In this document: piece after piece, positions 2,889 to 17,640 of the stretch | Layout of the letters: every line of letters starts with the position of its first letter | Numbering within the stretch: the first letter of the stretch is position 1 | IMG/VR virus record: IMGVR_UViG_3300032116_000127 | DNA length: 64,000 bases | From: an uncultured virus (IMG/VR IMGVR_UViG_3300032116_000127) | Taxonomy: Duplodnaviria > Heunggongvirae > Uroviricota > Caudoviricetes | Strand: one strand, 5' to 3' | The notes under the pieces: generated by a model | Told to the model about the DNA's origin: nothing | Databases searched by the model: none | What the model saw: only the letters and a program-made list of their open reading frames with translations | Made by a program: the position numbers and the translations under genes

Positions 2889-3295
2889 TGCGTGCCACCT
2901 TTATAAAATTTTGATTTGATAATTTCAATCTGCTCTGGTTTTAAAAGGGATAATATCTCTTTTGCTTTTTGAGCAGAAACGTTATAATATTCCATAATAA
3001 AGGGTTCATTAGAATCTTTAGATTTTTTTGCCCACTTTTTATTCGAATATCTTTTCTTCTTAGCGACTATATTTAGGTAAAATAGAAATTGCCATTTCTT
3101 TGGAACATAGTGCAAAATGTTGATTTCATTAGCTATTTGGACTGTATCTGGGAACATAGAGAGAGATCTATTAATAATATAAGGCAAATAATCTTCTTCG
3201 AAAGTCTCTGTTTCGTGTAGGTTTTCTTTACTGTAATTGATAGCTGTGACGAACTTAAATGGATTCGTTTTATACTTTTTTACTTCCACTGACAT
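2885..3295 (-). CDS. gp62: Clamp loader small subunit
   Basis: YLPYIINRSLS.F.D...ANE.N; synteny 45-44-62-regA. Confidence 0.9.
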   Translation of the reverse strand: MSVEVKKYKTNPFKFVTAINYSKENLHETETFEEDYLPYIINRSLSMFPDTVQIANEINILHYVPKKWQFLFYLNIVAKKKRYSNKKWAKKSKDSNEPFIMEYYNVSAQKAKEILSLLKPEQIEIIKSKFYKGGTQ

Positions 3296-4233
3296 TTTTT
3301 CATTATCTCTGTCATTGCAGCAATCTTATTAATATTCGCATCTGCTACGAAAGCTGACTTGTATTGATAATCTGCTAGTATTAAAACCAACTCTGGTATT
3401 GAATTCTTTTCAATTGCTGGTTGGCACTTTTCAAATATCTCTGAGAATAAATTTGTAGTATCAATATCTGAATTAAGATCAACCCATTCACGCATTTTAT
3501 CCCACTCTTTATTCTTTAAGTATTTAAATAGTTTTGTATAAGACTCGTCTGATACACCTACAAGAACTCCTGTATCGATAGTACCACCTACAGAATATCT
3601 TTGTAGTTCGTTTAATGTTTTTCTAAAATCAGGAAAAAACTTTTGTATAAGAGTAGCGACTACTTTCTTATCGTATTTTATATTTTCTTTATCAAGAATC
3701 TCAATAACTCTATTGAAAAAATCAGCAGCAATAATTGCTCTTTCATCAGTTGGTATTTTAAAGTCAACTACAGAACATCTTGATTTAATCGGATCAATAA
3801 TTTTATTCTTAAAATTACAAGTAAGTATAAATCTACAATTAGAAGAGAACTCTTCTATAAATGCTCTTAAAGCTGGTTGCATTATATTCGGAGTCATATA
3901 ATCAGCTTCATCTAGGATAATAACTTTTTTTGCTGCAGTCAAAGATACAGTTGAAGCGAATCCTTTAATCTTTACTCTTAGAGTGTCAATCATACGACCC
4001 TCTTCTGAACCATTTATGATTATATACTCAGCACCAATTTCATCACATAATGCACGAGCGACAGTAGTCTTACCAACTCCTGCTGTACCATAAAATAGAA
4101 AATGTGGTATCTGTCCTCCTTTAATGAAAGACTTTAATGTAAGTTTAAAATTTTTAGGTAAGATACATTCGTTGATTGTACGAGGACGATACTTCTCAAC
4201 CCAAACAAATTGATTTTCAGATGTGTTTATCAT
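3280..4233 (-). CDS. gp44: Clamp loader AAA+ subunit
   Basis: WVEKYRP, Walker A GTAGVGKT, DEAD, SRC motif. Confidence 0.97.
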   Translation of the reverse strand: MINTSENQFVWVEKYRPRTINECILPKNFKLTLKSFIKGGQIPHFLFYGTAGVGKTTVARALCDEIGAEYIIINGSEEGRMIDTLRVKIKGFASTVSLTAAKKVIILDEADYMTPNIMQPALRAFIEEFSSNCRFILTCNFKNKIIDPIKSRCSVVDFKIPTDERAIIAADFFNRVIEILDKENIKYDKKVVATLIQKFFPDFRKTLNELQRYSVGGTIDTGVLVGVSDESYTKLFKYLKNKEWDKMREWVDLNSDIDTTNLFSEIFEKCQPAIEKNSIPELVLILADYQYKSAFVADANINKIAAMTEIMKKCQWK

Positions 4234-4275: not shown

Positions 4276-4977
4276 TTATTTGCCGATTACAGAATCAGAT
4301 TCGATTGCGATGTAATATACTAGCGAACCTTTAGTTGCTGAAAACTTAGATAGTTTTTTGCTATCAACTGTCACTACATAATCTGTAAGTACAATTTTTT
4401 GTAAATTTTCAACTTTCATATTTACTTTAAACTCTTTATCTGACGTACCAATATCTAGATTAAAAGCATTAGCTGTTGATTGTCCTGATTTTGCAGCTTG
4501 TTGTGCTTTTTTATCAGCAACTTCAACACTTACTTTACCATCTTTTGATACGATTGATATATCGCTTACTTTTAAAATTGCTGCTGACTTTGAAATCATA
4601 TCTAAATCTGCTGCTTTTAAATTAAAAGATACATCATTAGAAACAGGCAAACTTTCTTTTGATGGAACAAGTAGCATTTCACTTGCTGCTGAATAGAATT
4701 TAATTTTTTGATGACCTTTAGAAATCATACAAAAATTATCACCAAATGTTAAATCTGCATCTTCCATTAATGTATAAGCTGATAAAAAATCGTTTAATTC
4801 GTATATGCCAAAATTTCCAGAACCATTGATTGGCAAATTCTCTGAAATTTGTGCTACAGCCATTACACTTTTTGCTGGCGATATTGTTGATATTTTATTA
4901 CCATTCTTTAACATTAGATTGGCATTAATTCCTGCGAAGTTTTTCATAATCGCAATTGTTTCTTTACTTAGTTTCAT
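4276..4977 (-). CDS. gp45: Sliding clamp
   Basis: MKLSKETIAIMKNFAGIN, FGIYELNDFL, YYIAIE; AAGGAG RBS favours ATG 4977. Confidence 0.93.
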   Translation of the reverse strand: MKLSKETIAIMKNFAGINANLMLKNGNKISTISPAKSVMAVAQISENLPINGSGNFGIYELNDFLSAYTLMEDADLTFGDNFCMISKGHQKIKFYSAASEMLLVPSKESLPVSNDVSFNLKAADLDMISKSAAILKVSDISIVSKDGKVSVEVADKKAQQAAKSGQSTANAFNLDIGTSDKEFKVNMKVENLQKIVLTDYVVTVDSKKLSKFSATKGSLVYYIAIESDSVIGK

Positions 4978-4979
4978 TC

Positions 4980-5261
4980 TCACTCCTTTTCATTATTAAG
5001 TTTTTCTCCTTGATCGTGTATATATAAAGCAAGAAGAGCATAGTGTAAAATCTTTAAAAGATCTTTACGATTTTGTCCATCTTTATGCCCATACCTTTGA
5101 GCATATTTTAAAACATTGCCTAGTGTAAATCCTAGACCATGACCACAATCAACGATGAACTCTGTTGATTGAAATTTCTTTTTAGAATAATGACCTTTAT
5201 ATGTTTGGTCAATATATTGTTTAAATTCTTTTAATAGTTTATCTTCGTTAAATTTATACAT
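4980..5261 (-). CDS. DUF3310/SaV-like protein
   Basis: GHY...GFTLGNVLKYAQRYG.K...DLLK..HY. Confidence 0.7.
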   Translation of the reverse strand: MYKFNEDKLLKEFKQYIDQTYKGHYSKKKFQSTEFIVDCGHGLGFTLGNVLKYAQRYGHKDGQNRKDLLKILHYALLALYIHDQGEKLNNEKE

Positions 5262-5601
5262 TAGTTAATACATCTTTAAAAAATTGCTTATCTTCTTCTG
5301 TTTTTGATACTTCTGCTCTTATATTAGAATCTCCCACTGGAATAGTTTTAACTATATTATCAGGATTTAATCCTTTCGCAGGAAAAAAATAAACTCCTGG
5401 ACTTATTTTATTAGTTTTAAACAACCAATTTGGGTATCCAATTTTATCTGAATCTGCTTTACGATTTTTTAATAAATTCATATGAGCCGAATAACATTCT
5501 GCTGCTGAAATTACTCCAGTTTTCTCAAGATTTGGGAAAATTGTAATTACTGCATCAACCCATTTTCTTTGAGCTTTAGAAGCATTATCGTATGTTATCA
5601 T
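5254..5601 (-). CDS. Hypothetical protein, paralog A (homologous to the AAA+ N-domain)
   Basis: KIGYPNWLFKTNKISPGVYFFP shared with 5701-6066. Confidence 0.75.
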   Translation of the reverse strand: MITYDNASKAQRKWVDAVITIFPNLEKTGVISAAECYSAHMNLLKNRKADSDKIGYPNWLFKTNKISPGVYFFPAKGLNPDNIVKTIPVGDSNIRAEVSKTEEDKQFFKDVLTNV

Positions 5602-5607
5602 ATCAAT

Positions 5608-5636
5608 ATTATATTATAAATTTTATTGTAAGTAAA
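5608..5636 (-). promoter_or_regulatory. Early promoter TTTACT-N17-TATAAT, probably leaderless
   Basis: -10 box lies 6 nt from ATG 5601. Confidence 0.8.
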
Positions 5637-5700
5637 GTGGGAGAAAAAAGGATAATTTCTTATATGGGACTCCCACTTTACAATTTAATAAAAACTCCCA

Positions 5701-6066
5701 TTAAGAAACTCTTATATCAATACCAAAAGCTTTTAAATCATTTAAAAATGATTTATCTTCTTCTGATACTCTACTAGTAATAACAATTGGTTCAGCTTTA
5801 CCATTTAAAGATTGAGATGCTTTTTGTACTGTCACTCCCTCTGCTGGAAATAAGTATATTCCTCTTTTAATTTTATTAAGTTTAAACAACCAATTTGGAT
5901 ATCCAATTTTTGGAGTACCTGAAACTCTTTGTTTTTCTAATTGTTTAAAAGAGTCATAACATTGTGTTGCTGTAATATACCCTTTACTTACACAATCGGG
6001 TAGAATTTTAGAAACGTTTTCTACCCAACGTTTTTGTGATTTAGTAAGTGAATTCCAAGTTAGCAT
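5701..6066 (-). CDS. Hypothetical protein, paralog B (homologous to the AAA+ N-domain)
   Basis: KIGYPNWLFKLNKIKRGIYLFP; TAATG coupling to the ATPase gene. Confidence 0.75.
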   Translation of the reverse strand: MLTWNSLTKSQKRWVENVSKILPDCVSKGYITATQCYDSFKQLEKQRVSGTPKIGYPNWLFKLNKIKRGIYLFPAEGVTVQKASQSLNGKAEPIVITSRVSEEDKSFLNDLKAFGIDIRVS

Positions 6067-7235
6067 TAAGCACTCACTGTTTGTTGTTGATTAACTACAG
6101 CACTCGCAACTTCAGACTCTGATGGTTTCGGAGCCGAAGTTTCTCTGTTATTTGATACTTTGTCAAACAAATCAATAAAAGCAAGTCTTGTTGCTTCATC
6201 GAATCTATTTGTACATAACTGTATAGATTTATCAATATCTTTAAATACTGAATATGCTCTTACAATATGAACCAATCTTCTTGTAGTAATTGTTTCATCA
6301 ACACCACCTGATTCATTTGTTTTTCTAATCACATCAGCCCACTTAACTAGAGTCTGAGCGAATTTATCATTCTTACATTTATAAGAGTCCATCAGATTTT
6401 TAACAATCTTTAATTCAATCGATGGTGTTGGATATTCTTGTTGGAATGTCACAGCAAATCTCTCTAGAAATGCTTCATTCAAAACATTCGTACCAATATA
6501 TCTTCCATCTTCTGAACCTTTGCCTTTGGTATTCGCTGTGGCGAATATATTAAAACCATTTTTTGGAACGATAATCTCGTTCTTTAATTTAAAGTAGAAT
6601 GGCTTACCCTCTAGAATTGGTTGTAAACATAATAGAGTATTAGCACCACCAGCATCGATCTCATCAAGCAATAATGGGATTCCTAATCTCATTGCTATAA
6701 CAACTGGTCCCTCTACGATTTGTATATTACCATCGACAAGTGTTTTAGTACCGATTAATTGATCTTCGTCTGTTAAGCTGTTTAAATTAACTCTAATTAA
6801 AGAAATTTTATGTTTTGCACAAATTTGTTCAATCGAAGTAGATTTACCATTACCAGTCGGTCCAGTCACAAATGTTGGATAAAATTGTCTAGAAGTTATG
6901 ATAGTTTCTAAGTCTTTATAATTTCCGAATGGGACATAATTACTATCTCTAATTGGAACTAAAGACTTAACATCTAAATTAGAAGATTCAGATTTTACAG
7001 TATCAATTTTAACAACATTATTTGTCACTGAAGAAGAAACACTTGAAAGAGGAATAATATAAGATCCTCTCCCAGTTTTTTGGGCTTTCACCCAGTTATA
7101 AACTTCTGATTTGTTGTCAAACTTAGTAGTTTTAAAAACTTTAACAATCTGTTTCCAATTAAATTTATTCTCATCATTGGAATAAGATTTATGTAGAGAT
7201 TCTACAAACTTTTTTATATTCGCATTATTCATCAT
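6066..7235 (-). CDS. MoxR/CbbQ-family AAA+ ATPase (often labelled CobS-like)
   Basis: GPTGNGKS, LLLDEID, ATANTKGKGS.DGRY.GTNVLNEAFLERF, ITTRRLVHI; start moved to ATG 7235 because 7265 is only 2 nt from the -10 box. Confidence 0.9.
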   Translation of the reverse strand: MMNNANIKKFVESLHKSYSNDENKFNWKQIVKVFKTTKFDNKSEVYNWVKAQKTGRGSYIIPLSSVSSSVTNNVVKIDTVKSESSNLDVKSLVPIRDSNYVPFGNYKDLETIITSRQFYPTFVTGPTGNGKSTSIEQICAKHKISLIRVNLNSLTDEDQLIGTKTLVDGNIQIVEGPVVIAMRLGIPLLLDEIDAGGANTLLCLQPILEGKPFYFKLKNEIIVPKNGFNIFATANTKGKGSEDGRYIGTNVLNEAFLERFAVTFQQEYPTPSIELKIVKNLMDSYKCKNDKFAQTLVKWADVIRKTNESGGVDETITTRRLVHIVRAYSVFKDIDKSIQLCTNRFDEATRLAFIDLFDKVSNNRETSAPKPSESEVASAVVNQQQTVSA

Positions 7236-7267
7236 ATATTTGCCTTTTTTAGTTGGTTTATACATAT

Positions 7268-7337
7268 ATTATAGCATAATTCGTTGAAAAAGTATATACT
7301 TCCAGAAAATAAAAAAGATATATATTTCAATGGTTTA
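7268..7337 (-). promoter_or_regulatory. Promoter TATACT-N17-TATAAT (extended -10) with upstream IHF-like site
   Basis: -10 7268-7273, -35 7291-7296; AAAAAA-N8-TTTCAA-TGGT-TTA at 7311-7337. Confidence 0.65.
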
Positions 7338-7343
7338 GTCATA

Positions 7344-7526
7344 TTATAGTTTTTTATTTTCGTAGTCTTCTAGATTTTCATCGTTTTTTGGTATAATTTT
7401 AACTATTTTTGTCATTACATCCCCAGTGGTTATTTTAATTTCACCCAAAGTAAATAGTGTAGAACCAAAACAACCAGATAAGGATAGTAATATCATAAAT
7501 TTAAATATTAAAATATGGAGTCGCAT
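7344..7526 (-). CDS. Small lipoprotein
   Basis: MRLHILIFKFMILLSLSG-C lipobox; start reassigned to ATG 7526. Confidence 0.55.
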   Translation of the reverse strand: MRLHILIFKFMILLSLSGCFGSTLFTLGEIKITTGDVMTKIVKIIPKNDENLEDYENKKL

Positions 7527-7818
7527 TTTTATATTTGTCAAGCACTTCAACTCTATTCGTAATCCACTCATCAAACAAAGGAAGACTTTTTGAATTAGTG
7601 CCATCCCAATTAATAAATGCAGTTTCAAAAAATTCTATTCTCTCATTAGGAAATTTTTGTTTATGTTCAGCTTGATATTCAACTAATTGTTTTTTCCAAG
7701 CATCAAATAAAGTATCAGACACAAGAGGATTATCTTTATACCAATACATATAAGAATGTATAAGTATTTTAGATCTTAACTCTATAATTTTATCTTTTAA
7801 TGATATTGTTTCAGCCAT
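7501..7818 (-). CDS. Stand-alone NAD+-dependent DNA ligase domain-Ia-like protein
   Basis: HSYMYWYKDNPLVSDTLFD aligns in register with LigA HEYLYHVMDAPEIPDAEYD; no adenylation domain. Confidence 0.7.
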   Translation of the reverse strand: MAETISLKDKIIELRSKILIHSYMYWYKDNPLVSDTLFDAWKKQLVEYQAEHKQKFPNERIEFFETAFINWDGTNSKSLPLFDEWITNRVEVLDKYKNATPYFNI

Positions 7819-10025
7819 TATGCTACCTGCTTTGCAAAAGAAGTTAATAAGAATCTACTATTTCTATTTTGTTTTAAAAGCTTAGTAAATGATTTTGCTA
7901 TTTGATTTGCTGTTTTTTCTTTTGTAGAAGTCAAATCATTAACAATATTTAAAGCTTCAGGTTTAATATTTTCTATTGGGATTAAATAATATTCATCATA
8001 AGAATTAACTTGTTTTAATGCAGAAGCACCTAATTCTTTAAAATCTTTTGCTATTTTAATTACTGTAGATTCGTCAGCATTTCCAAACTGACCATCATTT
8101 GTATAACTGTTTAAATGAGATAATGTATTGCTTATATGTCTTCTATTGTTTCTTATTAAAGAAAACGCAAGACAAGTTGTATTTGGATCTTGATCTTTTA
8201 TTATTTTAATTAAAGTACCAGTTTGCATATATGTTTTAAATTCATATTCTTTATTATCTTTCCTAAGATATAAATGTTTTTTTATAGAATAACTGTAAGA
8301 TTCAAAACGTCTTGGCTGGATGCTATGTCCTTCGCCATCTGTTAATACTATAAAAGAAAGTTTTTGAACATTATTTAATTTTTTAAATCTTGGTAAGAAA
8401 TCAATCATATAATATAAAGATTCATTTAAAGGTGTTGATGCTAATTTATAATTAGAAACATTTTTATATACTTCAGAGAATAATAAAGCACCCATTTTAT
8501 TATATTCTTCTTTGTTCATTTTATTAGATAAAATTTCAACAACTCTAAACATCTCAACATCTAATTGATTTGTAATTGACTTTCTAGCTTGATTTTCTTC
8601 AGGCGATAGTTTATCATCATAGGGTATATATCTTTCACCAAATTGTTTTGTTCTTTCAACATCACATAATGCTTTCTCAGGATTAGAGTCAGATATACCA
8701 TTAGTGAAAGCAAGAACAGTAAATGGTATATTTGCTATTTTGCAAAAACTAGTCATCAAATAAACTTGTTTAATAACGTCTTTTAATATGCCACTCATAC
8801 TACCAGACCAATCCATTAACATAACCATTCCATGATTTTTTCCCTTTGGTAATGATTGGATAGTTTTAAATATTTCTTCTTTAATTTTATAAGATGCTAA
8901 TTTCCTAATATCAATTACACCAGTTTTATGTTCTTTTGTTTTATAATATTGATTTGCTGATTTTCTCATTTCAAATTCTTTAAGCAAGTAATTTACTTCT
9001 TTTTTGGTTTCTTGTAGATATGAATTGAATTCAATGCTCGCTAATCTTATTTTATCTTCAGTAGTTTCCCATCCTCCGTGACCTGCTTTTTTAGCATTCG
9101 CTAATTCTAAATCTTCCTTAGTTTTTCTAATTGCTAACCAAGCATCTACATCTGTCATATATTTTTTATATGGTACATAAGGATCAAATCCTACAAATTT
9201 TGGATTATAGTCAACAATAACAAATTCATTATTACTTGTATGTTTTGATAACATATTATCAAACTTATCTTGAATTGTTTCTTCAGTAGTATTATCAGTT
9301 TCAAGAACAGTTGTTTCAGGATTAGATTTAGAACCACCTATTTTATTTCCATCTGCGTCCAGTTCATCCATAAGAAGACCTTTTAAAGAATCTTTAAGTT
9401 GTTCACCTTGTTCATTCTCATCACCATTTTGTAAGTACAGTGCAGCAAGTTTTTCTAAAGCTTGTTTTTCTAATTCTTTTTTAGCAACAGAATAAGCAGT
9501 AAGTTTTTTCGCTAACTTCATAACATCATCAAACGTTTCGCAATTATCAATTTCTTTTATATAACCATATTCTTCTGCTGTAAATTTAACACCACAATTA
9601 TAACCAGCTTTATAAAATAAATTTGCTTTATTAATAAATTGTTCTTTCACTAAATCTCTACCTTTAACACCAAAAAAATTTCTATCAACTAATTCTTTAT
9701 AAGCTGAAACAAAGTCTTTTTTCAATCCTGGATATTCGTTTTGTATTTTCTTTTCAATCCTAACATCCTCAATAACATTCGCCCAAGAATGTAATAGTTT
9801 ATTATTATTAAATTCTTCTGTTTCTGATTTTCTAAATGGAGTGTAAAGAGCATGCCCTACTTCATGGGCAATCAACATATTTTCGATATTTTCGGAAAGG
9901 TTCTTCCAGACAGGAAGAGTAAGAACTCTAGTTTCAACGTTAAAAGATGCAGTCGCAACAGGCTGTCTTAAAACAGTTATATTTTCAGTAGAAAGTAGTT
10001 TCGCTAATAAATCTTTTTTATTCAT
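7818..10025 (-). CDS. HExxH metallopeptidase-like + vWA (MIDAS) protein (often labelled CobT-like)
   Basis: HEVGH, N..ED.RIEK, DWSGSM, STPL, LTDGE. Confidence 0.88.
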   Translation of the reverse strand: MNKKDLLAKLLSTENITVLRQPVATASFNVETRVLTLPVWKNLSENIENMLIAHEVGHALYTPFRKSETEEFNNNKLLHSWANVIEDVRIEKKIQNEYPGLKKDFVSAYKELVDRNFFGVKGRDLVKEQFINKANLFYKAGYNCGVKFTAEEYGYIKEIDNCETFDDVMKLAKKLTAYSVAKKELEKQALEKLAALYLQNGDENEQGEQLKDSLKGLLMDELDADGNKIGGSKSNPETTVLETDNTTEETIQDKFDNMLSKHTSNNEFVIVDYNPKFVGFDPYVPYKKYMTDVDAWLAIRKTKEDLELANAKKAGHGGWETTEDKIRLASIEFNSYLQETKKEVNYLLKEFEMRKSANQYYKTKEHKTGVIDIRKLASYKIKEEIFKTIQSLPKGKNHGMVMLMDWSGSMSGILKDVIKQVYLMTSFCKIANIPFTVLAFTNGISDSNPEKALCDVERTKQFGERYIPYDDKLSPEENQARKSITNQLDVEMFRVVEILSNKMNKEEYNKMGALLFSEVYKNVSNYKLASTPLNESLYYMIDFLPRFKKLNNVQKLSFIVLTDGEGHSIQPRRFESYSYSIKKHLYLRKDNKEYEFKTYMQTGTLIKIIKDQDPNTTCLAFSLIRNNRRHISNTLSHLNSYTNDGQFGNADESTVIKIAKDFKELGASALKQVNSYDEYYLIPIENIKPEALNIVNDLTSTKEKTANQIAKSFTKLLKQNRNSRFLLTSFAKQVA

Positions 10026-10038
10026 AATATATACATAT

Positions 10039-10109
10039 ATTCTACTATAAAATGATCTAAAAGTATATAATTAGGAGAAAATAAAAAAGGTATATAAATC
10101 AGTGACTTA
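10039..10109 (-). promoter_or_regulatory. Promoter TATACT-N17-TAGAAT with upstream IHF site
   Basis: -10 10039-10044, -35 10062-10067; AAAAAA-N8-AATCAG-TGAC-TTA at 10083-10109 matches WATCARNNNNTTR. Confidence 0.7.
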
Positions 10110-10133: not shown

Positions 10134-10295
10134 TTAATTGCTTGCTGATTCTTCTAAAAATGACTCTAAACCATTTAAAAAATCATTGATCGATTCGATC
10201 GGTATTTTAGAAATGTCTTTTTTATCAGTGACTGTTGAAATATAATCAGTCAAATTTTTATTTAATTCGTTATGTGATTTAAAAGAATATAACAT
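10134..10295 (-). CDS. Small hypothetical protein
   Basis: MLYSFKSHNEL...; start reassigned to ATG 10295. Confidence 0.45.
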   Translation of the reverse strand: MLYSFKSHNELNKNLTDYISTVTDKKDISKIPIESINDFLNGLESFLEESASN

Positions 10296-10452
10296 TAAAT
10301 AATAATCCTGCTGCAAAACCAACACCAAATATAATACCAACACGAGATAATTCAGCATACATCGCGTCTCTTTCTTTTTGTAATCTTAATTGGTGTTCGA
10401 ATGCTTGTTTTTGTTTTTGAAGGGAATTAATGTGGTCAAATCTTGAGTCCAT
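10279..10452 (-). CDS. Small membrane-anchored protein (57 aa)
   Basis: Hand translation MDSRFDHINSLQKQKQAF...VGIIFGVGFAAGLLFNVIFF; downstream of an early promoter. Confidence 0.55.
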   Translation of the reverse strand: MDSRFDHINSLQKQKQAFEHQLRLQKERDAMYAELSRVGIIFGVGFAAGLLFNVIFF

Positions 10453-10517: not shown

Positions 10518-11306
10518 TTAATCAGGAATTCTTAATTTAGGTCTTAATTTCGCTTCATATTCTAGTTGTTGAGTAGTTGCTGCTTTTCTTAATTGTTTAT
10601 CTAATTTCTTTAAAGCCATATCTAATTTTAATTTACCTACTCTCTGAGTAAAGTCTATTCCTAACATATGGTCATATTCATGCTGAAATACTCTTGAATG
10701 AAACCCATCTAATTCGGTACGAACTTCTTCGCCTTTGAATGTAAAATATTTAACTTTAATTTTTTTTGGTCTTGATATTTTTAGCCATAATCCTGGACGA
10801 GATAAACATCCTTCTTCCATTAATTCAACTTCTTCTGAAGATTCTAATATTTCTGGATTAAAAACAGCATATTGATAGTTTTCAATAACTGTAATTGCAA
10901 ACACTTTTGCATCTATTCCTATTTGATTAGCTGAAAGACCAGCACCATTTAATTTTTGTGATACTTTAATCAATAATAATCCTAATTGTGCTGCTTCTTC
11001 TACTGGTTTTTTAAAGTCCCATTCTTTTGGTGGTGTTTTTAAACGTGGATCGTTCCATGGAATTAAACCATCAGTAGTTCTTACTGGTGTTATAATTTCT
11101 TTTCCATCTAAACTACTTGTTAGCTTTTCAACTTGTACTACAGTTGGTTCTGGTTTTAAAATACGTTTATCAAAAGATTCTTCTATAATAGGAAGTGATT
11201 TTGATTTCTTTTTTGCTTCTACTTCTTCAGCTGTAGCTAGTCTTGGGTTTATAGGATTACCATTTTCATCCACTGAATCCCAGACAACTTCTTTTACATC
11301 AGTCAT
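10518..11306 (-). CDS. def: Peptide deformylase with N-terminal extension
   Basis: GAGLSANQIG, EGCLS, QHEYDH motifs. Confidence 0.93.
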   Translation of the reverse strand: MTDVKEVVWDSVDENGNPINPRLATAEEVEAKKKSKSLPIIEESFDKRILKPEPTVVQVEKLTSSLDGKEIITPVRTTDGLIPWNDPRLKTPPKEWDFKKPVEEAAQLGLLLIKVSQKLNGAGLSANQIGIDAKVFAITVIENYQYAVFNPEILESSEEVELMEEGCLSRPGLWLKISRPKKIKVKYFTFKGEEVRTELDGFHSRVFQHEYDHMLGIDFTQRVGKLKLDMALKKLDKQLRKAATTQQLEYEAKLRPKLRIPD

Positions 11307-11620: not shown

Positions 11621-13333
11621 TTATGCATTTACGATTGTAGAGAAGTCGTTTTTCTTCTCAAATTTAATTGTACTCATAAATTTTTCAATTAGAGTATCAC
11701 CCTTATGACTAATTACGAAAACATTGACTTGAGAATCTAGTTGCGAAATTAGGTTTAAGAAATAATCTACACCTGATGCATCTAAAGATGAGTCAAATAT
11801 TTCATCCAGTACTAATAAAGATGTATTAATACTGTTCTTCATTTTTGCTATATGTCGCCATGTGAACAATATAGCTAAGTCAATACGCATTTTTTCACCC
11901 TCTGAAAAACTATCATAGGTGAATTCATCTCTATGTCTTGAACGTATCGTCTCAGTGAAGTTCTCATCTAATTCAAAATGAACATAAAAGTCCATCGCTT
12001 GTAAATATTTATTAATCAATTTATTCATTACAGGTAAATACTTTCGAATAATAGCAGTTTTAACACCTGAATCTTGTAAGAGTAATTTAGAAGTATTTTC
12101 TATTTCTATTGTTTGCATTAAACTATTCTTTTTATCAACATTAACTAATGCTAGTTCAGCTAGTTCTTTAATTTTATCTTTATATTTGTTGGTATCACTA
12201 GTTGTGTCTGATAGTGTTCGTTTTTCAGCTATACTGTTTTCAATATTAGTTTCAGTAAATTTTACACTAGTATTTAAATTAGATATTTCATTATTAATTT
12301 CTATTTTTTCATTAAATAATGTTCTTATTTCTCTTGATCTAGTTTCTCCAGCAGTCAAAGCTTCTAATAATTTAGAAAGTCTAGATTTTATATCTTCTTT
12401 TTCTTTTTCTAATTTACTTAATGCATGCTGTTTATGTTGTATAGGTGATTCGCAAGTAGGACAATTTTCGTTCTCATTAAAGAACATTATTTTTTCTTGT
12501 ATCTCAGCAATACGACTTTCATTTATTGCGATTAGTTTTCTTGCTTTGTCTACACGATCAAATACATCTACTGAGTCAATTGTTAAACTATCAATCTCTA
12601 AAAGTTTTTTATTTAATATAGTTATTTTGTTTTGTATTTCTTTTATATCTTCTCTATACTTTTCTATCTTTTCATCTATCTTAATTATATTCTCTTGTTT
12701 AGATACTGATAAATTTTCAAGTATAGTTTTTTGAGCTTGTATATTTGATTTAGCTATTTCTATATCTTTATTTACATCGACTAATGCTAATTTAGTATCA
12801 ACTGCTCTTATTTTAAGTATATCATTCATTTTACTGAATATACCTATATCTAAAATATCTTCAATTACTAATCTACGTTGATTTGTAGGTAATTGCATAA
12901 AAGGAATATAAGAAGCAGATCCTAAAATACAAACTTGACAGAATGTTCTATAATTAATTTTAAGTATTTGTTCTTCTATTTTCTTTTGACAATCACTGAT
13001 TGCTGCTGATTGATTTTGTAACACACCATTTTCATAATACTCAAATATATTAGGCTTAATTCCTCTTCTTATTTTATAGGTATTCGTTCCAGAAGAAAAT
13101 TCAATTTCTACTTCAGCATTTTTACCATTAATTGAGTTAATTAATTGATTCTTTTTTACTTGTCTAAATGGTTCACCGAATAAAACAAATGTAAGAGCAT
13201 CAAGCATAGTAGATTTACCATCACCATTTTTTCCTACCACGATTGTACTTCTTGTTTTATTCAATTGTATTTCGCACCAAACATTGCCTGTTGAGAGGAA
13301 ATTACGCCATTTCAATTTATGAAATATTATCAT
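11621..13333 (-). CDS. gp46: Rad50/SbcC-like recombination ATPase
   Basis: GKNGDGKST, zinc hook CPTC, FSEGEKMRIDLA, LDEIFDSSLD. Confidence 0.97.
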   Translation of the reverse strand: MIIFHKLKWRNFLSTGNVWCEIQLNKTRSTIVVGKNGDGKSTMLDALTFVLFGEPFRQVKKNQLINSINGKNAEVEIEFSSGTNTYKIRRGIKPNIFEYYENGVLQNQSAAISDCQKKIEEQILKINYRTFCQVCILGSASYIPFMQLPTNQRRLVIEDILDIGIFSKMNDILKIRAVDTKLALVDVNKDIEIAKSNIQAQKTILENLSVSKQENIIKIDEKIEKYREDIKEIQNKITILNKKLLEIDSLTIDSVDVFDRVDKARKLIAINESRIAEIQEKIMFFNENENCPTCESPIQHKQHALSKLEKEKEDIKSRLSKLLEALTAGETRSREIRTLFNEKIEINNEISNLNTSVKFTETNIENSIAEKRTLSDTTSDTNKYKDKIKELAELALVNVDKKNSLMQTIEIENTSKLLLQDSGVKTAIIRKYLPVMNKLINKYLQAMDFYVHFELDENFTETIRSRHRDEFTYDSFSEGEKMRIDLAILFTWRHIAKMKNSINTSLLVLDEIFDSSLDASGVDYFLNLISQLDSQVNVFVISHKGDTLIEKFMSTIKFEKKNDFSTIVNA

Positions 13334-17611: not shown

Positions 17612-17640
17612 ATTATACTATAAAAAAGCTTGTAAGTAAA
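17612..17640 (-). promoter_or_regulatory. Early promoter of uvsY-uvsW, probably leaderless
   Basis: TTTACT-N17-TATAAT, 7 nt from ATG 17604. Confidence 0.8.

Follow-up and report, generated by a model that had tools for sequence, protein, structure and literature searches.

Surveys of marine and freshwater viromes count the gene called cobS among the standard 'auxiliary metabolic genes', and T4-like cyanophages have it as a core gene; we know of no demonstration of its function in phages. The cobS naming is standard in the available text of papers on cyanophages and pelagiphages (PMC3037559, PMC7029224). For the bacterial CobS-CobT motor, the accessible part of a preprint (bioRxiv 10.64898/2026.10.09.757910) describes the vWA domain as engaging the ATPase pore and CobT's N-terminal domain as docking on CobS. 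For group 2.2 jumbo phages, the available sections of Iyer et al. 2021 (PMC7824862) describe a MoxR ATPase paired with a vWA protein that carries a metallopeptidase at its N-terminus, and they propose, on the model of an archaeal virus, that the pair serves in virion assembly, peptidolytic processing included. Solo Nlig-Ia forms have been reported in 81 phages and read as NAD+-binding (Iyer et al. 2022, PMC9503650).

The window analysed here is a stretch of 64,000 nucleotides from an uncultured virus, and its source genome is a T4-like aquatic myophage, kin of the pelagiphages HTVC008M and Mosig. Six genes lie together on its minus strand, in the order vWA/HExxH protein (735 aa, 7818..10025), solo Nlig-Ia protein (NAD+-binding domain Ia of LigA; 105 aa, 7501..7818), small lipoprotein-like ORF (7344..7526, within an open frame at 7344-7628), CobS-like MoxR AAA+ ATPase (399 aa, 6066..7265), paralog B (parB, 121 aa, 5701..6066) and paralog A (parA, 115 aa, 5254..5601). 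The ORF coordinates agree with the order given in a preliminary description of this DNA, as well as with the TAATG couplings it had noted for the Nlig-Ia gene and paralog B: one base is shared by the vWA stop and the Nlig-Ia start at 7818, and one by the ATPase stop and the parB start at 6066. The ATPase and vWA genes sit between gp46 and gp45. The same position, from gp46 to gp45/gp44, is occupied in HTVC008M, Mosig, Syn33 and P-TIM68 by the syntenic 'cobS' and 'peptidase' pair of T4-like cyanophages and pelagiphages (Kyanoviridae), which belongs to the same two families (phrog_249, 8.2e-102; phrog_459, 1.9e-152). The preliminary description had likewise called a vWA and MoxR pair common in T4-like phages.

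The ATPase consists of a basic N-terminal alpha/beta domain of ~65 residues (approximately residues 18-78 of the 399-aa ORF, 7032..7214), a linker and the AAA+ core. It matched Pfam AAA_5 (PF07728) at 1.1e-13 (51.8 bits against a cut-off of 22) and phrog_249 at 8.2e-102, and the Walker A (G125-P-T-G-N-G-K-S-T133) and Walker B (L189-L-D-E-I-D194) motifs were invariant in 43 sequences. By its AAA_5 domain and these intact motifs, the protein is a MoxR-class AAA+ ATPase. The CbbQ_C lid scored 18.9 bits, slightly below the cut-off of 20.6. The best NCBIfam match was CobS (TIGR01650, E 3.8e-25), with an alignment that covered ATPase residues 132-369 only (model positions 68-313 of 327) and left the CobS N-terminus unmatched. 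As a CobS equivalog the protein was rejected, at 88.8 bits against a cut-off of 558.55. The ATG at 7235 is likely the true start of the gene. Relatives mostly begin with MM, and many end in a C-terminal tail of the form (D/E)E(I/V)PF.

The 735-aa partner matched phrog_459 'peptidase' over its full length (1.9e-152). A zincin metallopeptidase signature comprises HExxH and a downstream acidic ligand, and a vWA MIDAS motif has the form DxSxS...T...D. Both were present, as H54-E55-x-x-H58 with E86/D87 and as D405-x-S407-x-S409 with T531 and D563, and all of these positions were invariant in 25 relatives, down to 31% identity. The N-terminal region is accordingly zincin-like by its motifs and a predicted metallopeptidase. 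Pfam vWA matches were weak among the 25 relatives (VWA_CoxE in 4, best 0.0031; VWA_2 in 3; DUF444 in 2), CobT_C was touched by 1 of the 25 (E 0.2), and a PDB sequence search with the vWA-protein profile gave no match at E <= 1.

Compared with the described systems, the locus is like the jumbo-phage pair in architecture, by which and not by sequence the two are likened. The available text on that pair (PMC7824862) mentions neither an ATPase N-terminal domain nor a free paralog, and it describes adjacent genes, whereas in the window the Nlig-Ia gene and the small ORF stand between the vWA and ATPase genes; in distant relatives those two genes are 89-136 nt apart. The bacterial CobS-CobT motor is the closest curated family for the AAA+ core, and its partner is also a vWA protein, but the ATPase N-terminus is different and the phage partner has HExxH where CobT has its N-domain. 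CobN (PF02514) was absent from the nearest record, a 69.5-kb fragment that is 39% complete. The vWA/HExxH and MoxR pair is already known; of the ATPase N-domain and its free form no description was found in the literature.

The small genes behind the ATPase gene encode stand-alone homologs of the ATPase's N-terminal domain. ParB and parA are paralogs by BLASTP (43/111 identical, 39%, E 9e-31), and the domain tree places them next to each other (support 94). BLASTP gave no significant match between the ATPase and either small protein (E 22 and 0.26), and the question was settled by profile comparison. An hhalign run of 102 small proteins against 43 ATPase N-termini returned a probability of 97.9% (E 3.2e-13, 62 columns) and an independent run 97.6%; the real pair gave 75.9, against 14.7 for a reversed alignment and 16.0 for the best of 30 column shuffles. 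The preliminary description had proposed that the domain occurs three times, once fused and twice free, and these comparisons confirm that homology, over the same residues that it had aligned. It had also suggested an HMM search of ATPase N-termini with the small proteins: an HMM built from the small proteins matched residues 18-86 of the window's ATPase (E 3e-4), and seven other window proteins tested gave E 0.5 or worse. Of the 47 ATPase ORFs listed for the wider clade of the window, 37 matched this HMM at E <= 1e-3 (best 4.6e-8). In the HTVC008M-like clade it hit 68 of 80 ATPase N-termini, with 7.8e-8 for HTVC008M's own ATPase. For cyanophage CobS, hhalign did not show N-terminal homology, the values being 0.8% to the small proteins and 6.4% to the N-termini of the ATPases. 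Each small protein has the domain first, then a linker that varies, and an acidic helix motif that is conserved at the C-terminus. Basic charge marks the N-domain (median pI 9.65, net +6), acidic charge the tail.

AlphaFold models of the free and fused domains, a comparison also suggested in the preliminary description, had the same order of elements, H-E-H-H-E-E (a1-b1-a2-a3-b2-b3). In parB (pLDDT 94.4) these were H9-21 (+23-28), E30-32, H33-45, H58-63, E65-67 and E70-72, and in the ATPase N-domain (pLDDT 85-88) H4-17, E24-26, H27-36, H42-51, E53-55 and E58-60. Both models follow the winged-helix order, which is also that of the winged-helix domains of MCM8, Cdt1, ORC and Dcc1, the most frequent class of weak structural match. 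The best Foldseek match was the MCM8 winged-helix domain at E 0.62. The best VIA-align Z values were 3.7 for parB and 5.8 for the ATPase N-domain, the latter matching the MCM8 winged-helix domain at 5.5, where the tool's own guide for a meaningful Z is about 8. The weak PDB matches were split between winged-helix domains (Z 3.5-5.5 only for MCM8, Cdt1, ORC and Dcc1) and EF-hand-like domains, which scored the same, and no sequence relationship of the domain to the MCM8, Cdt1, ORC or Dcc1 domains was found. Of the earlier label 'winged-helix-like', the secondary-structure order stood and the structural matches were weak (Z 5.8 or less); the models may point, weakly, to that fold class. When parB was searched against viral structure models, the top hit was a family member (E 9e-6), followed by a dynein-type AAA ATPase (prob 0.95); CobS entries stood at ranks 4, 6 and 46.

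Loci were fetched through the small protein, taking the best 80 of 209 matches, all viral. The ATPase gene was directly upstream of the small gene in 78 of these 80, and the remaining two begin at a contig end and are uninformative for the upstream gene. In L167, a divergent member of the family, the small gene is found ~600 nt upstream of gp45, and neither next to it nor elsewhere in the 31-kb fragment is there an ATPase gene, so the link of the small gene to the ATPase is not obligatory; with it the tally was 78 of 81 viral loci linked, two uninformative and one divergent exception. The gap from the ATPase gene to the small gene was -1 to 132 nt in 77 of the 78 loci, with a single case of 474 nt, and flanking intervals were 89-963 nt and 348-3288 nt long. 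Gp45 was within 0.35-3.3 kb in every locus that extended far enough downstream. Co-occurrence of the ATPase, the vWA/HExxH protein and the free domain in distant relatives, which had been put forward as a check on the module, was thus found in 78 of 81 loci (the best 80 of 209 matches plus L167). Since the linked loci are all T4-like with strongly conserved synteny, the adjacency may come partly from local duplication and inherited gene order.

At 50% identity the small-protein family fell into 120 clusters; almost all are proteins that stand alone, measure 90-180 aa and have intact frames, which we count in favour of selection on them. It was met only in viral or metagenomic sequence, and no Pfam or PHROG model matched it. 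The sister clade of HTVC008M-like phages, including HTVC008M and Mosig, has the fused domain only, unlike the window's phage, and no free copy was found in cultured phages, a tblastn search with two family members against 50,697 records giving no match. The sister clade and the cultured phages do without the free copy, which was counted against an accessory role for it.

The remaining genes are accessories found in the closest relatives only, and the earlier idea of a six-gene system did not hold. The 105-aa protein matched Nlig-Ia (PF22745) at 8.8e-17, with 62 bits where the cut-off is 27 (residues 9-95 to model positions 4-88 of 92), and, like the solo proteins of other phages (PMC9503650), is a stand-alone domain; it differs from them in lying between vWA and ATPase genes in the closest relatives only. 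It was present in 17 close relatives and in none of 37 more distant loci with both vWA and ATPase genes, so no support was found for it as a module member. The lipoprotein-like ORF encodes 60 aa from the ATG at 7526 or 50 aa from that at 7496 (MRLHILIFKFMILLSLSGC...), with a hydrophobic stretch followed by L-S-G-C. The bacterial lipobox at the end of a signal peptide is L-x-[GAS]-C. The frame was open in 9 distinct close-relative variants, with the Cys and preceding L(S/L)(G/N) of this putative lipobox and a C-terminal EDYENKKL kept, and the ORF was seen only between the Nlig-Ia and ATPase genes, in close relatives with Nlig-Ia. A second paralog, giving two free copies, was found only in L003-L024, and paralog A is a lineage-specific tandem duplicate.

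The module had been said to have a promoter class of its own, and a near-identical element does precede the vWA and ATPase genes. The vWA element (10034..10089, minus strand) has a T-rich block, TATATACTTTT and a -10-like TAGAAT; the ATPase element (7268..7317, minus strand) has the same T-rich block and TATATACTTTT, a 17-nt spacer and TGcTATAAT, and is conserved in the close relatives L003, L008, L019, L021 and L025. A fuzzy scan of the 64 kb gave five matches, with the full element at these two genes only. ParA has a promoter-like site, TTTACT-17-TATAAT, at 5636-5608. The sites before the vWA gene, the ATPase gene and, in some relatives, the small gene are putative sigma-70-like promoters of early type rather than late motifs of T4 type. 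Contigs from lake-water RNA libraries cover the genes, with the ATPase/parB junction bridged in 2 runs; they are weak evidence of expression because DNA carry-over is possible.

We give about even chances to the reading that makes the free domain an accessory (as adaptor or regulator) serving an early-expressed remodelling or protease machine and not a cobalt chelatase. The free copies would have arisen by duplication of the ATPase's targeting domain and would act in trans as accessory subunits of the ATPase/vWA-peptidase machine, recognising whatever the fused domain binds, be it a nucleic acid or a target protein, and delivering this ligand or competing for it. The machine would be expressed early from the sigma-70-like promoters and would remodel or cleave protein targets, inserting no cobalt into corrin, and the Nlig-Ia protein, the lipoprotein-like ORF and the second paralog would be lineage-specific additions. 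The small proteins might instead be independent nucleic-acid-binding factors of the replication and early-gene module, such as transcription or replication accessories, that share the domain by descent and mark by their position the site of a duplication. This is rather unlikely in our estimation. Their basic N-domain and acidic tail, the winged-helix-like element order, weakly matched by the winged-helix domains of MCM8, Cdt1, ORC and DpnI, the constant nearness of gp45, the L167 gene near gp45 without an ATPase gene, and the promoter-like site of parA and some orthologs all fit it. The distance to gp45, however, varies ten-fold where in 77 of 78 loci the ATPase gap keeps to -1 to 132 nt, the small protein was linked with no repeated operator-like sequence, and the matches to DNA-binding winged helices fall under the tool's meaningful level.

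A virion-assembly chaperone with a processing protease, in which the N-domain and the free copies recruit structural proteins, would follow the proposal made for the same architecture in group 2.2 jumbo phages in the available text of PMC7824862; with the genes in the replication/recombination block between gp46 and gp45 and not in the structural block, preceded by sigma-70-like promoters and linked to structural genes in none of the loci examined, we judge it improbable. That the pair is a genuine CobS/CobT motor of an aerobic cobaltochelatase, an auxiliary metabolic gene set with the small proteins as unrelated passengers, seems very unlikely. Standard annotation in the available text of the cyanophage and pelagiphage papers (PMC3037559, PMC7029224), CobS as the best NCBIfam match and the single CobT_C contact speak for it, but the AAA+ core alone aligns, far below the CobS cut-off, the partner's invariant HExxH region replaces the CobT N-domain that docks on CobS in the accessible preprint text (bioRxiv 10.64898/2026.10.09.757910), and CobN was not found in the nearest record, itself a partial fragment.

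A bolder proposal, which we hold improbable, is that the 'cobS' of marine viruses is non-metabolic, the motor of a three-part machine (MoxR ATPase, vWA-metalloprotease and free copies of the ATPase's basic targeting domain) whose early targets in infection would be proteins bound to DNA or associated with the replisome. The free domains, basic at the head and acidic at the tail, would govern the place or the time of its action, and in many relatives the (D/E)E(I/V)PF tail of the ATPase would mimic the tip of the C-terminus of bacterial SSB and thereby dock on replication and repair proteins of the host. The pelagiphage-type 'CobS' has a non-CobS N-terminal domain, which an entire clade of uncultured phages retains in free form too, beside the ATPase gene. 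The free domain is a concrete candidate for a third component of a widespread, unexplained phage machine, and its occurrence in fused and free form provides a testable argument for a protein-remodelling or protease machine over a cobalamin enzyme.

The window is AT-rich (26-36% G+C), and all genes around the module lie on the minus strand, running from a gp46-like nuclease subunit (11621-13333) to the clamp loader gp44 (3280-4233). Between these are, in order, a peptide deformylase (10518-11306), a 735-aa vWA/HExxH protein (7818-10025; phrog_459 'peptidase', 1.9e-152), a 105-aa Nlig-Ia protein (7501-7818; PF22745, 8.8e-17), a small lipoprotein-like ORF (within 7344-7628), a 399-aa ATPase (6066-7265; AAA_5, 1.1e-13; phrog_249 'porphyrin biosynthesis', 8.2e-102), two small proteins designated parB (121 aa, 5701-6066) and parA (115 aa, 5254-5601), a DUF3310 protein (4980-5261) and the sliding clamp gp45 (4276-4983). 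The family scans concur with the identities given in the preliminary description, and both of the TAATG couplings it reported were confirmed as overlaps in the sequence. No match to parA or parB was obtained in Pfam, PHROGs or NCBIfam. The true start of the ATPase is probably the ATG at 7235, because most relatives begin MM... and this ATG closely follows a TGcTATAAT box. The peptide deformylase carries an ~80-residue N-terminal extension, its Pfam domain covering residues 83-227 of 262. Two overlapping small ORFs, 10279-10452 (-) and 10134-10358 (-), lie between the deformylase and vWA genes and had no family match in Pfam or PHROGs; the 57-aa ORF of this pair has a C-terminal hydrophobic, membrane-like stretch.

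The two small proteins are clear paralogs of each other (39% identity, E 9e-31). Pairwise BLASTP of the ATPase against parA or parB was not significant, and profiles were therefore needed. Relatives of the small proteins were collected by word search (14), by exhaustive profile search (120 clusters, nearly all stand-alone proteins of 90-180 aa) and from 80 viral loci, the best 80 of 209 viral matches. These loci also supplied 43 distinct ATPase N-termini. It had been claimed from the sequence that the ATPase N-terminus aligns with both small proteins, and the profile alignment coincides: hhalign scored the small proteins against the ATPase N-termini at 97.6% in one run, and at 97.9% with tool-made alignments (E 3.2e-13, 62 columns). 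In the control, the score was 75.9 for the real pair, against 14.7 after reversal of the alignment and at most 16.0 in 30 column shuffles. Direct matches of a small-protein HMM to phage ATPase N-termini were obtained as well. This 182-sequence HMM reached E <= 1e-3 in 37 of the 47 listed ATPase ORFs (best 4.6e-8), including the window ATPase (3e-4, residues 18-86), and it matched HTVC008M CobS at 7.8e-8, the Mosig ATPase at 4.7e-5 and 68/80 ATPases from the HTVC008M-like set of viral contigs. The exhaustive profile search, run with a narrow 15-sequence alignment, had no ATPase N-terminus among its 120 matches; the four long matches were repeat proteins and one over-extended ORF. Homology of cyanophage CobS N-termini with the domain was not demonstrated, the alignment there being of low diversity. 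Pfam searches with 102 small proteins and the 43 N-termini returned scattered noise, and CobS_N was absent from the families listed for the N-termini and from the 25 of 58 listed for the small proteins. The best ESM Atlas score was 0.82, to viral clusters without a name. In a quick domain tree built on few columns, the copies of parA type and parB type cluster with each other (support 94), which fits a recent tandem duplication; the tree is poorly resolved. Fused domains of the same phage clade are nested within an unresolved grade of free copies (support 75), and the tree is too coarse to place the origin of the free copies.

In the loci found through the small protein, the small gene is tightly linked to the ATPase gene. 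Among the best 80 of 209 loci, the ATPase gene is directly upstream of the small gene in 78, and the other two start at a contig end. The two genes are separated by -1 to 132 nt, apart from a single gap of 474; the vWA-to-ATPase interval is 89 to 963 nt and that from the small gene to gp45 is 348 to 3288 nt. Tandem copies, two per locus, were limited to the 22 closest loci (L003-L024), and the other 58 have a single copy. Several results stand against strict coupling. In L167, a viral contig locus with a divergent member (2103-2429), the small gene has no ATPase gene beside it and is ~600 nt upstream of gp45, and no MoxR ATPase was found in this 31-kb fragment; phages of the HTVC008M-like clade carry the domain in fused form, essentially without a free copy (one weak match across 80 loci, of which 73 were informative). 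The small gene in L167 sits behind the gene for a 329-aa protein of no known family. Locus scans with single divergent members gave one locus from one scan and none from the other. A tblastn search of two family members against 50,697 phage records returned nothing, and a pattern scan of limited sensitivity across 185,579 bacterial and archaeal genomes found no relative.

AlphaFold models support the kinship of the free domain (parB, pLDDT 94.4) and the fused domain (pLDDT 85-88 across the 60 N-terminal residues of the ATPase): in both, a helix and a strand are followed by two helices and then two strands. When parB was searched against viral structure models, the top match was a family member (E 9e-6); a dynein-type AAA ATPase ranked second (prob 0.95), with CobS entries further down at ranks 4, 6 and 46. 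Foldseek of parB against the PDB gave nothing at E <= 1e-3, the best match being the MCM8 winged-helix domain (E 0.62). The best VIA-align scores were weak (Z 3.7 for parB; Z 5.8 for the ATPase N-domain, with the MCM8 winged helix at 5.5). Winged-helix domains were the commonest class among the weak structural matches, and EF-hand-like proteins scored equally. Profiles of the small proteins and ATPase N-termini found nothing significant in PDB sequences; the ATPase N-terminal profile gave faint EF-hand-like rows, calmodulin and troponin C, at E 0.37-1.1. The first helix-loop-helix of the ATPase N-domain (~7032-7214, -) and its relatives reads F..L.E.FPD..T.G.V....LL..M..L, an EF-hand-like pattern, and the putative calcium-ligand positions in the small-protein and N-terminus alignments are without acidic residues. 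Because the PDB matches are weak, EF-hand-like proteins score equally and the calcium positions are not acidic, the models suggest a domain that is winged-helix-like by topology, short of a fold assignment. The free form starts from a domain of basic character (median pI 9.65, net +6), to which are added a linker that differs widely in length and is often lysine-rich, and a conserved C-terminal acidic motif, ..(D/E)(D/E)F..L...G(I/V)... The last 22 residues have a median net charge of -4, and in the parB model the acidic tail is a helix and a strand packed on the domain. A complex prediction of full-length ATPase with parB, each with its own alignment, scored 0.00 and carries no weight for or against binding.

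A promoter class proper to the module had been proposed, and this held up for two of its genes: the vWA and ATPase genes share a near-identical upstream element made of a T-rich block, TATATACTTTT and a -10 box (7268-7317 (-) before the ATPase gene and 10034-10089 (-) before the vWA gene). The full element occurs at only these two sites in 64 kb and is conserved in close relatives. In distant relatives, TTGACTTTAATT-N11-TATAAT precedes both the vWA and ATPase genes and, in some of these relatives, the small gene as well, and a hairpin often precedes the site of the ATPase gene. The promoter-like site of parA is of a different, commoner type, TTTACTT.CAA...TATAAT, with six on the minus strand of the window. 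These sites, TTTAC(T/A)..CAA-N-TA(G/A)TATAAT, are at 17640, 15038, 10517, 5636, 630 and 265, and are probably the general early promoter type of the phage. The promoter sites are sigma-70-like and therefore suggest early or middle expression of the module. Contigs from four lake-water RNA libraries match the window at 90-99%. They cover Nlig-Ia, the small ORF, parA, parB and, with a single contig of 1097 nt, the ATPase gene, and in two runs they cross from the ATPase gene into parB; some stretches of the vWA gene were uncovered, and no inference was drawn from this gap. These contigs are no more than a hint of transcription, since DNA carry-over is possible. DNA near-identical to 5254-10109 was found in lake-water, marine and 'fungus'-labelled metagenome runs, 11 studies in all, and 14 runs contain at least half of its sampled words. 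The near-identical DNA in many runs, with parts in lake-water RNA libraries, suggests a widespread aquatic lineage.

The preliminary description had proposed a six-part system, which was not borne out, as the Nlig-Ia protein and the small ORF are accessories of close relatives outside the conserved system. The Nlig-Ia gene was present in 17 close loci and in none of 37 more distant loci with both flanking genes. The small ORF, 60 aa from ATG 7526 (7344-7526, -), was seen only in close relatives with Nlig-Ia. It has a hydrophobic stretch followed by L-S-G-C, kept in 9 variants, and could encode a phage lipoprotein. Its C-terminal EDYENKKL is conserved, and if ATG 7526 is the start, the ORF shares 26 nt with the Nlig-Ia gene at the 3' end of the latter. 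Solo Nlig-Ia proteins are reported in 81 phages and have been read as NAD+-binding (PMC9503650).

The ATPase/vWA-peptidase pair is already known. The closest cultured relatives are the Pelagibacter phages HTVC008M and Mosig (Kyanoviridae), with 66-69% DNA identity over small parts, and these phages, like cyanophages Syn33 and P-TIM68, have the order gp46 ... 'peptidase' ... 'cobS' ... gp45, gp44, as in the window. This synteny makes the pair a known one, together with reports that list cobS among cyanophage core genes (PMC3037559), list cobS and cobT among pelagimyophage auxiliary metabolic genes (PMC7029224) and describe, for jumbo phages of group 2.2, a MoxR ATPase whose partner is a vWA protein with a metallopeptidase fused at its N-terminus (Iyer et al. 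2021, PMC7824862). No experimental test of its function was found in the literature consulted. Across 25 relatives, with identity down to 31%, the HExxH of the vWA protein is invariant and its MIDAS-type motif is complete; matches of the protein to curated vWA models were weak, and its profile found nothing significant in PDB sequences. The ATPase is of the MoxR class with intact Walker motifs.

Bacterial SSB docks on replication and repair proteins through an acidic ...IPF tip. In 28/43 aligned ATPases, a Pro/Ala/Val-rich stretch leads to a terminal (D/E/Q)E(I/V)PF (one VDPF), which we take to resemble that tip. These tails belong to loci L031-L082; the window ATPase instead ends ...QQQTVSA, and ATPases of the HTVC008M-like clade end in long acidic Asp/Glu/Ser runs. 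Apparent second HMM matches at ATPase C-termini had domain E-values of 69-200 and were thus set down to acidic low-complexity tails, not homology.

The vWA domain of a MoxR/vWA pair engages both the ring of the ATPase and a target. CobST structures concur (bioRxiv 10.64898/2026.10.09.757910). The fused N-domain would serve the phage ATPase for targeting or docking, and the free copies, made from the same transcription unit, would bind the same ligand, either handing it to the machine as an adaptor or competing for it with the ATPase as a regulator. Whatever the motor presents would in turn be cleaved by the HExxH region. That the free domain is an accessory subunit of the ATPase/vWA-peptidase machine is, in our judgement, about an even chance. 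The small proteins could otherwise be an independent nucleic-acid-binding factor, a reading to be set beside their basic domain and the ATPase-free L167 on one side and the adjacency in nearly all loci on the other; we consider it unlikely. Service of the whole module in virion assembly, as proposed for the jumbo-phage pair by Iyer et al. 2021 (PMC7824862), is to be set beside promoters that suggest early or middle expression, and seems somewhat less likely still. It is quite improbable that the pair is a true cobaltochelatase: the cobS name notwithstanding, the ATPase scored 88.8 bits against the TIGR01650 cut-off of 558.55, its AAA+ core alone aligning, and the CobS/CobT equivalog was rejected.

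No description of the ATPase N-terminal domain or of its free paralogs was found in the main texts of the open-access literature searched. With the accessory role standing at about even, what is new is a third component, previously unremarked, beside the known phage MoxR/vWA-peptidase pair.
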